From an uncultured bacterium (GTDB lineage Bacteria > Electryoneota > AABM5-125-24 > Hatepunaeales > Hatepunaeaceae), in assembly GCA_964387885.1 (NCBI GenBank), contig CAYLYZ010000016.1:3352-67351 (forward strand): DNA of 64,000 nt, given 5' to 3'. Below, piece after piece: positions 604 through 57,892 of this stretch (position 1 is the first letter of the stretch; every line of letters begins with the position of its first letter). The translations under genes were made by a program, and so were the position numbers. Below the pieces are notes generated by a model that was not told where the DNA came from, did no database searches, and was given only the letters and a program-made list of their open reading frames with translations.

Positions 604-952
604 ATCCAACACCTCAGTCTTTGAAGATGAGCTGACGGAACGGCAGAAAGAACTGATAGGAAAACTCGCTGACTGGACAGTCAGGAAACGTATGACAGCA
701 CCTGCTATCCTCTTCCTCGAATCAATCCGCCCACTGAATTACGTTGGCAGTCAGGTCATGGTGTTCTTTGCGCCTGTAGTTAACGCAGTTTTCAATTTGC
801 CCGAATGGGATGAACTAAGAGCTGTTCTCGAACGTCGCGAATCGGTCGCATATATCCTTGACCTTATCGAAGAAAAGGAAGCAGATTTCTTGACCGAAGA
901 GAGTATCAGAAAAAAAGAAGCAAAAGCCCGAAAGAAAGAGGCAACCAAATGA
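593..952 (+). CDS. hypothetical protein with Lys/Glu-rich tail
   Basis: 119-aa ORF that overlaps both neighbours (ATGA overlap with 949..1452), so it looks operonic. No recognisable motif. Confidence 0.4.
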   Translation: MTGESNTSVFEDELTERQKELIGKLADWTVRKRMTAPAILFLESIRPLNYVGSQVMVFFAPVVNAVFNLPEWDELRAVLERRESVAYILDLIEEKEADFLTEESIRKKEAKARKKEATK

Positions 953-1452
953 ACGAAGCAAACGCAACATCCTTTTTGCGCGGTCTGCGCGGAATGTGGT
1001 CACACCCGGATCCTGTCCAGGTGATAGCCAATATCGATTTCGAATCCGCCGGAGCCTCAATGCCCGGAAACCCGCATACGATCTGGCAGATACTCCGTCA
1101 CACCTACGGATGGTGCTGGCTTTCAATAGATTGGGCACGACCCGACGACAACTTTCCAGATCCGGATAAAGATAATTACTTCTTCCCGGAGAAAGCACCC
1201 GAAAACGAGGAACAATGGAAAGCTGCGCAAAGTGAAATGCAGGAAATAGTAGACGCCTTGAAAGAAATTCTTCCGGATATCGATCTTGAACATAAATACG
1301 AAAATCTCCATAACATGACATCCGGTGATCTGCTGATGATCCTGACAACTCACACGAGTTATCATATGGGGCAGATTAGCATGATTTTGAAAACGAATGG
1401 GAAGATGAAGGATATGAAAGATTTATTTGTTGAAGATGTTGGGGAATTGTAG
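949..1452 (+). CDS. DinB-family (four-helix bundle, metal-binding) protein
   Basis: Length about 165 aa. The C-terminal HTSYHMGQISMILK matches the DinB/YfiT-type His motif. Confidence 0.55.
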   Translation: MNEANATSFLRGLRGMWSHPDPVQVIANIDFESAGASMPGNPHTIWQILRHTYGWCWLSIDWARPDDNFPDPDKDNYFFPEKAPENEEQWKAAQSEMQEIVDALKEILPDIDLEHKYENLHNMTSGDLLMILTTHTSYHMGQISMILKTNGKMKDMKDLFVEDVGEL

Positions 1453-1460
1453 GGGGAGAT

Positions 1461-2705
1461 ATGGCTAAAAAGAAAATACCTGAACAAAAAGAATCATCGG
1501 TTCTAACCAAGATTTCGGTTGAGGGATTTAAGTGTTTTCGGGATAAGACTGATGTCGAAATCCGTCCACTTACGATTTTGGCGGGCGCAAATTCAAGTGG
1601 GAAGACTTCTATTATGCAGCCTCTTTTGTTGATGAAACAAACTGTGCTCTATCCAACAGAAATGAGTTCAGCACTGAATATTAACGATTCGAATGTATCA
1701 CTTACATCTTATGACCAGATTTTCGGGAATCACGGTGGTAAAAATATAGAGGAAGTTCGTTTCAAATTATCTCGATCTGACCTCAGTAGTATTGAGTTCA
1801 TATTAAAGGATGGAGATGTTGACCTAACCTGGGAGAAATTGACACCTGAACCGAAAAGTTTTGATTTACGTGTTAAGAAATCTATCGGAATCAACGATCC
1901 AAATGAAAGTATACATGCTAATGCGAAGAATTTCAAACATATAATTCAAATACATTTCAGTGATGTAATGGGACTCCTGCATGTGGCTGGGATCAGAATG
2001 TCTGAACCTAGACACCACGCTTTCTTAGGCTTAGTTGATCAGAAGAGCCTATACCGAGGACGATTTGATGATTATGTCGCAAGTTTACTTTTTACATGGC
2101 AGTCAAAAAATAGACGTCATGAACTACTTCAATTATATAAACAACTTGAGGAACTCTCATTAGCCTATAATGTTTTTACTGAAAGACACTATTCTGATAA
2201 ATTGTACATTAAAGTAAGTATGATCTCCAAATCTCATAAGCCTGAGAGTAAATACAATATAGCAGATGTAGGTATCGGAGTTTCTCAAGCATTACCCGCT
2301 TTGGTTGCTCTAATTGCCGCAAAACCCGGCCAAATCGTCTACATCGAGCAACCCGAAATCCACATCCACCCTCGCGCACAATTCGACCTTGCAAAAATCC
2401 TCGCGGATGCATCAAATCGGGGTGTTATCGTCATTGCTGAAACTCACAGTGACCAATTGCTGTTAGGGATTCAGCATCAAGTGGCAAGTGGACAGATTGA
2501 TACGAGCAAGGTAAAACTTCATTGGTTTGAACGGGACGAAGAAGGCGCGTCGCATGTTGACAGCACCGATTTGGATGAAAGAGGAATACCAAAGAAGGAC
2601 TGGAAAGCAGACTTCGACGAAGTCTATATGGCTAATCAAGGTAAGTATCTAAAAGCATCCTTTAATAAGGAAAAAAAGAAATTAAAAACGAAAACACCCG
2701 CTTAA
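1461..2705 (+). CDS. ABC-type (AAA_21/AAA_15-like) ATPase with DUF3696-like C-terminal tail
   Basis: GGGGGAG RBS upstream. Walker A is LAGANSSGKTS. Walker B/D-loop is IVYIEQPEIHIHP. H-loop is IAETHSDQLL. The tail VKLHWFERDEEG...DWKADFDEV resembles DUF3696. Confidence 0.75.
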   Translation: MAKKKIPEQKESSVLTKISVEGFKCFRDKTDVEIRPLTILAGANSSGKTSIMQPLLLMKQTVLYPTEMSSALNINDSNVSLTSYDQIFGNHGGKNIEEVRFKLSRSDLSSIEFILKDGDVDLTWEKLTPEPKSFDLRVKKSIGINDPNESIHANAKNFKHIIQIHFSDVMGLLHVAGIRMSEPRHHAFLGLVDQKSLYRGRFDDYVASLLFTWQSKNRRHELLQLYKQLEELSLAYNVFTERHYSDKLYIKVSMISKSHKPESKYNIADVGIGVSQALPALVALIAAKPGQIVYIEQPEIHIHPRAQFDLAKILADASNRGVIVIAETHSDQLLLGIQHQVASGQIDTSKVKLHWFERDEEGASHVDSTDLDERGIPKKDWKADFDEVYMANQGKYLKASFNKEKKKLKTKTPA

Positions 2706-3217
2706 TTATCGATGCTTGTGTTGCCGGGAGAGTCGGTGGTGATAATCCGGAGAACGAATCAGCTCAGTTATGTCTGGACTGTCTCATTTCAATTTTCGAC
2801 AACGAATACTCAATTGTATTCGATGATATAATCGAAGAGGAATGGGATAATCATGCATCACGTTATTCTAAGGGCTGGCTCTTAGCGATGAATAATAAGA
2901 ATAGAATTGAAAGGCCAGAGATAATTCAGGATGAGCGTCTAAGAGACTTCATTCAATCGCTCCCTGATCAGGGTGTGACGAACCTTTTATTGAGAGATGT
3001 TCACATGATAGAGGCAGCTTTCGTAACTGAAAACAGAATAATTTCAACAGATGATAAAGCCAGGAAGCATTTTGGATTACAGATACTTGAATTATATGAC
3101 CAACTTAGAGATATTCTTTGGGTGAATCCGGAGAAGCCAGAAGAGAAGTGTGTTGAGTGGCTTGATAAGGGTGCAGTAGCAGACGATAAATACAAACTTG
3201 AAAACTTTAACAACTAG
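2672..3217 (+). CDS. PIN-like nuclease-domain ORF lacking a canonical start; probably a -1 frameshift or fusion extension of the ATPase
   Basis: The frame is open from 2669. The first ATG is at 2888, but 73 upstream codons are stop-free and protein-like (LIIDACVAG...EEEW...). The acidic pattern IIDAC / EEEW / LLRDVHMIEAA / IISTDDK resembles PIN. A slippery A_AAA_AAG lies at 2672-2678 in the ATPase frame. Confidence 0.5.
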   Translation, partial: KKEIKNENTRLIIDACVAGRVGGDNPENESAQLCLDCLISIFDNEYSIVFDDIIEEEWDNHASRYSKGWLLAMNNKNRIERPEIIQDERLRDFIQSLPDQGVTNLLLRDVHMIEAAFVTENRIISTDDKARKHFGLQILELYDQLRDILWVNPEKPEEKCVEWLDKGAVADDKYKLENFNN

Positions 3218-3220
3218 ATA

Positions 3221-5002
3221 ATGCCAAACGAACCAAAAACCATCCTCGCCACAGATTGTGGCTCGACGACAACCAAGGCGATCCTGATTGAAAAGCAGGA
3301 TTCCGGTGAATACCGCCTTGTGGTGCGTGGTGAAGCTCCAACAACGGTTGAAGCTCCATTTGAAGACGTCACTAAAGGTGCCTTGAACGCGATCCGTGAG
3401 GTCGAGGAACTGTCAGACAGACATTTTATCTCCGATGACGAGACAATAGTACGCCCCGACAGCGGCGACCTCGGCACGGATATTTACATATCGACCTCAT
3501 CGGCAGGCGGTGGCTTGCAGATGATGGTCTCCGGTGTAGTTAAATCAATGACAGCCGAATCAGCAGAACGCGCCGCACTCGGTGCCGGATCAATCGTGAT
3601 GGATGTGCTCGCTTCCAACGACGGACGTCTCGCTCATGAGAAAATCGAGCGAATAAGACGCTTGCGCCCCGACATGATATTGCTCTCCGGAGGGATTGAC
3701 GGCGGGACGACCAAACATGTCGTTGAACTCGCCGAGTTAATATCAGCGGCACGTCCCCGTCCACGATTGGGCGGTGGCTACGATCTGCCCGTTATCTATG
3801 CCGGGAACAATAAAGCCTGCGATGAAGTTGACAATGCACTGGGAGATAAAGTATCGCTCAAGATAGTTGACAACCTCCGCCCTATCCTCGAGCAGGAAAA
3901 CCTTGGACCGGCACGTGACAAGATACACGACCTTTTCATGGAACATGTTATGGCTCAAGCTCCTGGTTACAATAAACTGATGAGCTGGACGGATGCTCCG
4001 ATTATGCCTACACCTGGTGCAGTCGGTAATATAATGGAAACAATCTCGAAGAAAGACGGTATCGACCTCGTCGGAGTTGACATTGGTGGAGCTACAACTG
4101 ACGTTTTCAGCGTCTTCGGAGGTGTCTTTAACCGAACGGTATCGGCTAACCTCGGAATGAGTTATTCAATCTCGAACGTACTCGCCGAAGCCGGCTTTGA
4201 TAACATCATGCGCTGGGTTCCCTTTGATATCAGCGAGGAAGACTTGCGTGACCGGATCGGTAATAAAATGATCCGACCGACCACGATCCCGCAGACACTT
4301 GAGGAATTGAAGATTGAACAGGCAATTGCGCGTGAAGCATTGAGGCTGGCATTCATACAGCATAAATCTTTTGCCGTTGGGCTAAAAGGTGTTCAGCAAG
4401 AACGCTCAATCTCAGATACTTTTTCACAGAAGTCTACCGGTGAAACTCTCGTCGACATGATGTCGTTAAACATGTTGGTCGGTTCGGGAGGCGCATTATC
4501 ACATGCTCCCAACCGCTCCCAGGCTGCACAGATGATGATCGACGCATTTTTACCGGAAGGTGTAACCCGATTGGCTGTAGACTCAATTTTCATGATGCCC
4601 CAACTCGGTGTGCTTGCAACGGTGAACGAACGGGCAGCAACTGAAGTCTTTGAGAAAGACTGCCTGATCCACCTTGGAACCTGTATTGCCCCATTGGGCA
4701 CAGGCAAAGCAGGAAAACCTGTACTCCAGATTACCGGCAAATCCAATAGAGGCAGAGAAGTTAACCTTGAAGTCAATTTTGACGAATTAGTGCTGACCGA
4801 GTTCGAAGTTGACGAAACCATGCATGCTCACATAACTCCGGCTAAAGGACTGGATATGGGCGAAGGACCCGGTAAACCTGTGGAGCGAGTGGTTCATGGG
4901 GGCGTCGTCGGCTTAGTAATTGATACTCGAGGCCGCCCTTGTGACTTGAGACGTGATACTAAGGAAAGAGTTCAGAAATTGAACAAATGGAAATTGGATT
5001 GA
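3221..5002 (+). CDS. GlmL/MutL-family (glutamate mutase L-like) ASKHA-fold ATPase-like protein, long form
   Basis: The N-terminal ILATDCGSTTTKAILIE, the second phosphate motif VGVDIGGATTDVFSVF and LLSGGIDGGT are typical of the GlmL/MutL family. Confidence 0.65.
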   Translation: MPNEPKTILATDCGSTTTKAILIEKQDSGEYRLVVRGEAPTTVEAPFEDVTKGALNAIREVEELSDRHFISDDETIVRPDSGDLGTDIYISTSSAGGGLQMMVSGVVKSMTAESAERAALGAGSIVMDVLASNDGRLAHEKIERIRRLRPDMILLSGGIDGGTTKHVVELAELISAARPRPRLGGGYDLPVIYAGNNKACDEVDNALGDKVSLKIVDNLRPILEQENLGPARDKIHDLFMEHVMAQAPGYNKLMSWTDAPIMPTPGAVGNIMETISKKDGIDLVGVDIGGATTDVFSVFGGVFNRTVSANLGMSYSISNVLAEAGFDNIMRWVPFDISEEDLRDRIGNKMIRPTTIPQTLEELKIEQAIAREALRLAFIQHKSFAVGLKGVQQERSISDTFSQKSTGETLVDMMSLNMLVGSGGALSHAPNRSQAAQMMIDAFLPEGVTRLAVDSIFMMPQLGVLATVNERAATEVFEKDCLIHLGTCIAPLGTGKAGKPVLQITGKSNRGREVNLEVNFDELVLTEFEVDETMHAHITPAKGLDMGEGPGKPVERVVHGGVVGLVIDTRGRPCDLRRDTKERVQKLNKWKLD

Positions 5003-33874: not shown

Positions 33875-33948
33875 GGCGGAGTAGCTCAGCTGGTCAGAGC
33901 AGCGGAATCATAATCCGCGTGTCGGGGGTTCAAGTCCCTCCTCCGCTA
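33875..33948 (+). tRNA. tRNA-Met (anticodon CAT); tRNA-Ile2 (lysidine) cannot be excluded
   Basis: Manual cloverleaf: GGCGGAG/CTCCGCT acceptor (G1-U72), GCTC/GAGC D stem, GCGGA-ATCATAA-TCCGC anticodon arm, GGGGG-TTCAAGT-CCCTC T arm. 74 nt, no encoded CCA. Confidence 0.85.
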
Positions 33949-33971
33949 CTACCCTTTGGATCATTGCACAG

Positions 33972-57436: not shown

Positions 57437-57818
57437 TTTGCTCTCCAAATGAATTAGTAATTGAACTTAAAGTATTGGTTTTCACAATCTTTCATGTTCA
57501 TGTGGATACGTAATTTATTAGAATATACTGAGACGAACATCGACAAACAAGCAAATAATTCTTGTATTATGTGGATTATCCACATCTTAAGCAGTTTATT
57601 CATCAGGATTGATTTACTTTTCGGGTATAACTCCCCGTCAATTTCTACCTGATTTCAGACGACTCATAATCTGGCAGGTTACAATCGTTCTGTTCAATTG
57701 AACCTAATCGGGAACAAAAGAGATTGCTTCACTTCGTTCTCAATGACGGAACTCTCGGAAAAATCCAAAAAACTGAAAAGCTCACCGGTACAAATCAGTG
57801 AGCTTTCTTGATTGTCAG

Positions 57819-57892
57819 TACGCCCATTAGGAATCGAACCTAAAACCTAGTGATTAAGAGTCACTTGCTCTGCCTGATTGAGCTATGGGCGC
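57819..57892 (-). tRNA. tRNA-Lys (anticodon CTT)
   Basis: Manual cloverleaf on the minus strand: GCGCCCA/TGGGCGT acceptor, GCTC/GAGC D stem, AGTGA-CTCTTAA-TCACT anticodon arm, TTAGG-TTCGATT-CCTAA T arm. 74 nt. Confidence 0.85.

Follow-up and report, generated by a model that had tools for sequence, protein, structure and literature searches.

This study concerns two adjoining genes, one for an ABC-type ATPase and one for a PIN-like nuclease, in a 64,000-nucleotide stretch of DNA from an uncultured bacterium (assembly GCA_964387885.1, contig CAYLYZ010000016.1, positions 3,352 to 67,351 of the forward strand). The whole stretch is called the window here, and positions are counted from its first letter. 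The ATPase gene lies on the plus strand at 1461–2705. As an initial annotation of the same DNA had described, its open reading frame (ORF) starts with the ATG at 1461, encodes 414 amino acids including GANSSGKT, IVYIEQPEIHIHP, and AETHSD, and ends with the TAA at 2703–2705. The −1 frame relative to this ORF, to which the annotation had also drawn attention, is indeed closed by a TAA at 2666–2668, directly preceded by a second TAA at 2663–2665, and is then open from 2669 to the TAG at 3215–3217. Translation of 2669–3217 gives 182 residues with the N-terminus GKKEIKNENTRLIIDACVAG. The first start codon in this frame is the ATG at 2888–2890, with no ATG, GTG, or TTG before it, which leaves 73 codons without a start, again as reported. 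Gene callers use this ATG and predict a 109-amino-acid product, yet it encodes an internal residue (Met74) of the domain. In the zero frame of the ATPase gene, the codons GAA AAA AAG contain the heptamer A_AAA_AAG at 2672–2678 (plus strand), which overlaps an A7 run at 2671–2677. The annotation had singled out this heptamer, and the −1 frame opens 3 nucleotides (nt) before it.

The ATPase has the Walker A motif GANSSGKT, a signature motif GIGVSQ, the Walker B motif IVYIEQPE, the H-loop ETHSD, and a Lys-rich C-terminal tail. It matches AAA_15 (5e-23) and AAA_21 (8e-22) in Pfam, and its best match in PADLOC is NsnB (7e-54, residues 15–385), ahead of lower-scoring matches to HEC-03B, PDC-M55A, AriA, and GajA. 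NsnB was also the best PADLOC match for all four of the homologous ATPases scanned (1e-54 to 4e-59), which come from the loci numbered L030, L009, L010, and L096 in this study. The DUF3696-like tail of the initial annotation stands as a weak match of a C-terminal fragment (E = 0.037), while in the window protein it stays below the Pfam threshold. In the same four homologues, the DUF3696 match lies at or near that threshold (25.2 bits in L096 and 21.6 bits in L030, with a cut-off of 22). A C-terminal motif, GDWPEDFxDVxLxAQxRYL, is common to all the ATPases of this module. At least 4308 relatives of the ATPase were found, and the best 120 of them are 389–501 amino acids long.

The second ORF gave nothing usable in scans of Pfam, NCBIfam, and PADLOC, with no Pfam match at E ≤ 1, and a word-indexed protein search returned the ORF itself and one relative only. 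By an exhaustive HMMER search, however, at least 1639 representative proteins (clusters at 50% identity) were found at E ≤ 1e-3, and 833 at E ≤ 1e-10. The best 150 matches are all 226 amino acids or shorter, typically 175–185, and the 120 proteins listed from a profile search are all 225 or shorter. The family consensus is MxxxxSxRLVIDASVAxSAG...EW..H...W...KDxHLxEAA...SxDxxAR...WVNP...W..GA, in which LVIDASV, EW, KDxHLxEAA, and SxDxxAR are the conserved motifs. D15, W59, D110, W151, P154, and W164 are invariant, E58 is present in at least 90% of the members, and D128 is present in at least 90% of 40 sequences and in the majority of 56. An AlphaFold2 model made with the family alignment as input has a predicted local distance difference test score (pLDDT) of 94.5 and a predicted template modeling score (pTM) of 0.90, and its beta-alpha fold begins at residue 11. 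A profile search of PDB sequences with the family gave nothing significant. In a Foldseek search of the PDB, the best matches of the model are PIN proteins, namely HARP/PRORP (7e8k), Pyrococcus proteins (1v96 and 1y82), VapC proteins (5x3t and 7vwo), Regnase, Nob1, and Utp24, although the statistics are weak (E of 9e-3 or higher and TM of 0.4–0.5, with a probability of up to 0.99). Weak Pfam matches to PIN families were seen in a few of 56 members: PF01850 in 3 (best E 2.8e-4) and PF13470 in 3 (best E 1.1e-3). Since the predicted fold, the Foldseek matches, and the four classic acidic motifs agree, the second ORF can be regarded as a divergent PIN nuclease, and it looks catalytically competent. 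This agrees with the PIN-type domain that had been suspected by eye. The annotation had been unable to assign the ATPase and the nuclease to a named system, and the searches bear this out: NsnB is the best match for the ATPase, and the PIN protein has no match in PADLOC, Pfam, or NCBIfam.

A locus search with the single PIN protein yielded one distant metagenome locus only and no genome locus. In every homologous locus examined (L008–L013, L030, and L094–L097), the gene upstream of the PIN gene is, or ends in, the same type of ATPase, and the coupling of the two genes is usually tight. They overlap by 1 nt in Sorangium (L009) and are separated by a 1-nt gap in Microcoleus (L010). Among the metagenome contigs, L008 and L011 have an ATGA-type overlap behind an 863-amino-acid TPR-ATPase fusion, L012 has an ATGA-type overlap behind a split ATPase, L013 has the ATPase directly upstream of the PIN gene, and L094 and L095 have a GTG start with an 11-nt overlap. 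Two further loci come from metagenome-assembled genomes (MAGs): L030, from Candidatus Hatepunaea meridiana, has an ATGA overlap, and L097, from GCA_964635255.1, has an ATG start with a 17-nt overlap. Counted back from the catalytic Asp, the ATG or GTG start is at codon −12 in each of L008–L012 and L094–L097, and at codon −8 in L030. In the window, codon −12 is occupied by GAA (2678–2680) and codon −11 by ATT (2681–2683). L030 is the syntenic counterpart of the window, with the same gene order (the gene for a 119-amino-acid ORF, DinB, ATPase, PIN, and then a PF13941 gene). Its junction, TTGGAAAAAGTATGAAT, is a canonical ATGA overlap behind GGA and an A-run, with GGAAAAAGT directly before the ATG. 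Family members of 133–145 amino acids were considered as further start-less or frameshifted cases and were rejected. They are gene-caller artifacts having a GTG or ATG at the usual position.

The ATPases themselves vary in an uneven manner. The middle insert of the window protein (residues ~70–270; 1670–2270 in the window) is hypervariable, with ~30% identity to the diverged relative L001, as compared with ~90% over residues 271–414. In the alignment with L030, the middle is heavily gapped, with ~75% identity remaining over the first 60 residues and the C-terminal third. Judging from the alignments, such a pattern would typically be produced by diversifying selection on a sensor surface or by recombination. 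The 863-amino-acid proteins (L008:2413–5004 and L011:2413–5004) carry ~430 residues of TPR repeats N-terminal to the ATPase. For this reason, the idea that some PIN genes lie behind an unrelated TPR protein was rejected: these proteins are TPR-ATPase fusions having the same ATPase C-terminus. In L012 (3699–5004), a plain ATPase is split into ORFs of 353 and 101 amino acids. An identical PIN protein (P0162) lies downstream of the TPR-ATPase in L011 and of the split plain ATPase in L012, which indicates, from the gene arrangements, that the N-terminal part of the ATPase may be shuffled between modules.

Is the start-less stretch real, and is it translated? The initial annotation had offered, as one explanation, an assembly indel in the A7 run that masks a fused ATPase-PIN gene of ~585 amino acids, and homopolymer runs are error-prone with some sequencing technologies. 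However, six loci taken from assemblies by JGI, ENA, and Logan, which differ in sample and pipeline, match the window at every one of the 300 nt compared, junction included, and the 109-amino-acid product is present on 14 contigs. In L001 (Logan SRR11600268), which is 84% identical to the window, the local sequence is TGG+A6+G, yet the frame relationship is unchanged, and there is likewise no start codon upstream of the ATG equivalent to 2888. Fused homologues are absent among the best matches listed. The indel explanation is thus refuted and can practically be dismissed. Another explanation is that the PIN gene is a remnant, already dead or decaying, and untranslated before the ATG at 2888 or altogether. 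It is true that related copies are damaged, by a 1-nt frameshift in L030 and an in-frame TAA in L097, and that gene callers give only the 109-amino-acid C-terminal piece. Against this, the comparison of the window with L001 over the start-less part (2705–2887, −1 frame) revealed 22 synonymous and 3 non-synonymous differences, with a ratio of non-synonymous to synonymous substitution rates (dN/dS) of 0.019 at a dS of ~1.1. For the C-terminal half of the PIN gene (2888–3214), the numbers are 36 and 24 (dN/dS 0.088), and for the C-terminal part of the ATPase gene (2292–2669), they are 48.5 and 18.5 (dN/dS 0.054). The PIN frame has no indels or stops in either lineage, while the other two frames of the region have many stops and dN/dS ratios above 1. 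Furthermore, a product starting at 2888 would be without strand beta1, Asp15, and Glu58 of the fold. The low dN/dS of the start-less part therefore argues that the PIN gene is alive and that its start-less N-terminal half belongs to the protein. The 73 codons are PIN-coding as had been read, and a remnant is very improbable.

How is this protein initiated? The explanation I favor, with modest confidence, is that the two genes form an operon in which the PIN ATG was lost by a point mutation and that the free PIN subunit is mostly made from the AUU at 2681. The ancestral ATPase and PIN genes would have overlapped as ATGA at 2681–2684, as those of relatives still do. A substitution, G2683T, would have changed the ATG to ATT, with loss of the PIN start, and the TGA to TTA (2682–2684 in the ATPase frame), with loss of the ATPase stop. 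Thus, a single substitution explains both losses, and the ATPase would have been extended by 7 codons to the TAA at 2703–2705 by the loss of the TGA. The extension is poorly conserved, with KLKTKTPA in the window versus KLTAKTLA in L001 (3 of the last 6 residues differ), and in the overlapping PIN frame NTRLII is retained, the changes there being synonymous. The PIN gene as proposed here spans 2681–3217 on the plus strand (178 codons and the stop), within the frame that is open from 2669, and the free subunit of ~178 amino acids would have a normal length and be produced at a low level. The AAGGA and A-rich run at 2667–2680, which also encodes the Lys-rich ATPase tail, may serve as the translation-initiation region: its Shine–Dalgarno (SD)-like AAGGA (2667–2671) is located 9 nt upstream of the ATT, with an A-rich spacer between. 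SD-like motifs precede 7 of the 28 long ORFs in the window and A-rich leaders are common, a pattern which GGAAAAAAAGAA-ATT matches. The ATT is one codon after the aligned Met of the homologues and is retained in L001. Coupling to ATPase translation may help the AUU, with the ATPase ribosomes terminating 22 nt downstream. AUU initiation in Escherichia coli has 1–2% of the efficiency of AUG, and AUU is the natural start of infC and pcnB (bioRxiv 10.1101/063800). The PIN gene resembles these genes in having, downstream of a ribosome-binding-type leader, a near-cognate AUU in place of the AUG or GUG of relatives, with low expression expected. Unlike infC and pcnB, it has no sign of IF3-type autoregulation. 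It is plausible that a nuclease subunit is expressed at a low level, which may even be of advantage, and by comparison of the sequences, the AUU seems to attenuate a toxic nuclease in a way that has been tolerated or selected. The heptamer would then have been inherited as a side effect of the Lys-rich ATPase tail and the A-rich leader.

Several points weigh against an AUU start. AUU starts are very rare, and the one proposed here is a prediction in this lineage. The family Met aligns one codon upstream of the ATT, so that the Asp would be residue 11, not 12, in a family where the range is 8–12. The ATT state is shared by one diverged relative only (L001), which is a single observation. The 14-nt block at 2672–2685 is unchanged between the window and L001 despite the dS of ~1.1, with differences at 3 of the 6 preceding bases and at 4 of the 27 following ones; such a constant block would fit a constrained slip site equally as well as an initiation region. 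Finally, the lineage without a start codon also has a heptamer opening into the right frame.

The heptamer had led to the proposal of programmed −1 frameshifting in the initial annotation. According to this explanation, a programmed or adventitious −1 slip at 2672–2678 would produce an ATPase-PIN fusion of ~585 amino acids along with the free ATPase; as a "savior" frameshift, it would have supplied most of the PIN activity, or a sizeable second share of it, since the start codon was lost. The fusion would contain the trans-frame junction peptide FNKEKKEIKNENTR, as opposed to the Met-KNENTR N-terminus expected from an AUU start. The junction is FNKEKK|EIKNENTR because the codon read next is GAA (2678–2680), and the peptide given before (...FNKEKK-KEIK) had one K too many. 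As at the dnaX site, an identical A_AAA_AAG in the zero frame is followed by an open −1 frame. The heptamer is in the correct phase, with the −1 frame opening just before it, a slip would join the ATPase tail to PIN exactly at the family Met1 position, and both the heptamer and the frame relation are retained in L001. The unchanged 14-nt block and the strong selection on the start-less PIN half would also be in line with slippage. Moreover, the ATPase C-terminal tails touch the PIN-like domain in models of the Menshen system, so a short tether is conceivable (PMC12065111). Nevertheless, fusion-length proteins are found in none of the best 150 and none of the best 120 PIN matches, nor in any of the best 120 ATPase matches. 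The downstream region, for which folding had been suggested as a check, has no stimulatory stem-loop: 2679–2760 folds at −15 kcal/mol (z = 0.15) and 2640–2800 has a z of 0.07, no better than shuffled sequences. SD-like stimulators of dnaX-type frameshifting lie about 10–14 nt before the slip site. Here, no SD-like element exists at that distance (2655–2662 is GCATCCTT), and the sole SD-like AAGGA at 2667–2671 abuts the heptamer. In E. coli, A_AAA_AAG is exceptionally prone to slip, a property linked to the presence of a single tRNA-Lys with better pairing to AAA than to AAG, and only about half of all bacteria are in this position (PMC5009743). Unlike E. coli, the organism of the window has a tRNA-Lys(CTT) gene (57818–57892, minus strand), a dedicated reader of AAG, so AAG is not read by a sole tRNA-Lys(UUU). 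In the ~53 kb of long ORFs in the window, A_AAA_AAG occurs 6 times in phase (for example, in the tryptophanyl-tRNA synthetase gene) and 6 and 4 times in the other phases, which means that the heptamer shows no phase bias and is not avoided in phase. The homologues, whose comparison had also been suggested, have a separate PIN gene with its own ATG or GTG, and among them the heptamer and the frame arrangement are not conserved as a pair. No heptamer is present at the L008–L012, L030, and L094–L096 junctions. L097, whose MAG is the closest species by flanking gene, has an in-phase GAA_AAA_AAG in its ATPase tail (SFEKKKKMKEK...), yet its PIN gene is in the +1 frame and begins with an ATG (MQQQSNLQIVID), and a stop ends the −1 frame after ~18 codons. 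Since the in-phase heptamer has no recoding role in L097, it would be an inherited by-product in this group rather than something that evolved when the start was lost. Thus, the heptamer of the window is a possible but unsupported slip site, and −1 frameshifting is unlikely to be the main route to PIN. That PIN is delivered only as a trans-frame fusion since the loss of the start is more doubtful still, while low, adventitious slippage alongside AUU initiation is quite possible. Initiation at another non-canonical codon, or insertion of an extra A by transcriptional slippage on the A7 run, is improbable. An ATT (2705) and an ATC (2708) lie just before the catalytic Asp, but a start at either would remove most of strand beta1 (residues 11–14 in the model) and leave an N-terminus shorter than in any family member seen. 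Bacterial transcriptional slippage usually needs runs of 8–9 or more to reach an appreciable level, and the run is only A6 in L001.

The idea of frameshifting was attractive at first and is probably wrong; the dnaX-like heptamer is probably a coincidence lying over a start-codon mutation. With initiation at AUU as the preferred explanation, the junction would be a natural example of a single substitution in an ATGA that removes a stop and a start together, while the toxin-like downstream gene is still strongly selected, and it would lend itself well to testing non-canonical initiation against compensatory frameshifting. If the fusion-only explanation were true instead, a small fixed fraction of the ATPase oligomers would carry a tethered nuclease, which would amount to recoding-based dosage control of a defense effector. 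In addition, gene callers repeatedly shorten members of the PIN family (calls of 109 to 145 amino acids), which hides the family from annotation.

Lesions of different kinds were seen in other copies of the PIN gene. In L030 (4090–4616), the gene is split by a 1-nt frameshift near 4285 into ORFs of 76 and 109 amino acids. In L097 (2230–2760), an in-frame TAA lies just before the conserved WINPEKPEE region, which may be a nonsense lesion or a sequencing error. Three related copies (L030, L097, and the window) with different lesions suggest, as far as the sequences go, that the nuclease may have been attenuated recurrently. In L001 (1386–1428), the PIN stop codon is lost, and the ORF (a 122-amino-acid call) is 13 codons longer and overlaps the start of the PF13941 gene.

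The interval at 949–3220 of the window, between the DinB-family gene and the PF13941 gene ('MutL', of the glutamate-mutase-associated type), is a variable islet. The same slot is occupied by a type IIG restriction-modification enzyme (Eco57I/MmeI-like, ~1070–1085 amino acids) in L015 and L016, by Fic in L018, by an MNT-HEPN pair with helicase-like genes in L019, and by the ATPase-PIN module and MNT in L030. By its gene content, such a slot appears typical of defense and toxin-antitoxin islets. In the metagenome contig L096 (1–6161), a type I restriction-modification operon carries the module as an insertion, with HsdR on one side and HsdM/HsdS on the other. Flanking genes of the window are 81–85% identical to those of uncultured MAGs labeled Calditrichaeota or Candidatus Hatepunaea, a Por_Secre_tail protein (type IX secretion system) is encoded nearby in the same contigs, and the GC content of the window is 42.6%. 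Judging from these features, the window is from an uncultured bacterium of the FCB (Fibrobacteres–Chlorobi–Bacteroidetes) group. A tRNA-Met(CAT) gene is located at 33875–33949 on the plus strand.

The ATPase and PIN genes form a widespread two-gene module that is probably defensive and occurs in hotspots of defense and toxin-antitoxin genes. The ATPase oligomer would probably hold the PIN protein via its C-terminal, DUF3696-like tails, as can be imagined from Menshen NsnB-NsnC, Septu, and PARIS; a phage-derived cue would then make the ATPase release or activate the PIN protein, which would cleave RNA. For this very common module of an NsnB-like ATPase and a PIN that stands alone and seems active, PADLOC v2 has no model on the PIN side, and the literature searched contains no description of such a pair; for systems of an ATPase (DUF3696) and PIN, only the Menshen paper was found. 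The module is thus a candidate for defense-system testing.

The closest known system is Menshen. Its ABC ATPase, NsnB, has DUF3696 helices at the C-terminus that, in a predicted NsnB4-NsnC2 complex, clamp an inactive, PIN-like domain at the N-terminus of the effector NsnC (PMC12065111). The module resembles Menshen in its NsnB-like ATPase with a GxG signature and a DUF3696-like tail and in the PIN-fold gene directly downstream. Unlike Menshen, it has no NsnA (ParB-DUF262 plus ParBDB); a gene for a 119-amino-acid ORF (no Pfam match) and a DinB-family gene lie upstream instead. Furthermore, while NsnC joins an inactive PIN to a nuclease at its C-terminus, the partner in the module is a single-domain PIN of ~180 amino acids with conserved catalytic acidic residues and no PADLOC match. 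The module looks like a minimal, NsnA-less cousin of Menshen and could show the origin of its inactive PIN adaptor. Septu PtuA/PtuB, PARIS AriA/AriB, and Gabija GajA share with the module an OLD-type ABC ATPase (AAA_15/AAA_21), a small nuclease gene immediately downstream, and defense-island contexts, and the likely logic would be the same, with the ATPase gating the nuclease. In contrast to these systems, the nuclease is a PIN rather than an HNH or Toprim protein, and the antiphage activity of the module is a prediction. The PIN protein itself resembles VapC- and HARP-type PIN proteins in fold and acidic motifs (D after beta1, E, D..hhA.A, and S/T-x-D), whereas it has an additional conserved C-terminal WVNP...W...GA and is accompanied by an ATPase, with no antitoxin-like small partner. 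Taken as analogies, these comparisons suggest that the module may work like NsnB-NsnC or like Septu and PARIS, but that it is not Menshen.

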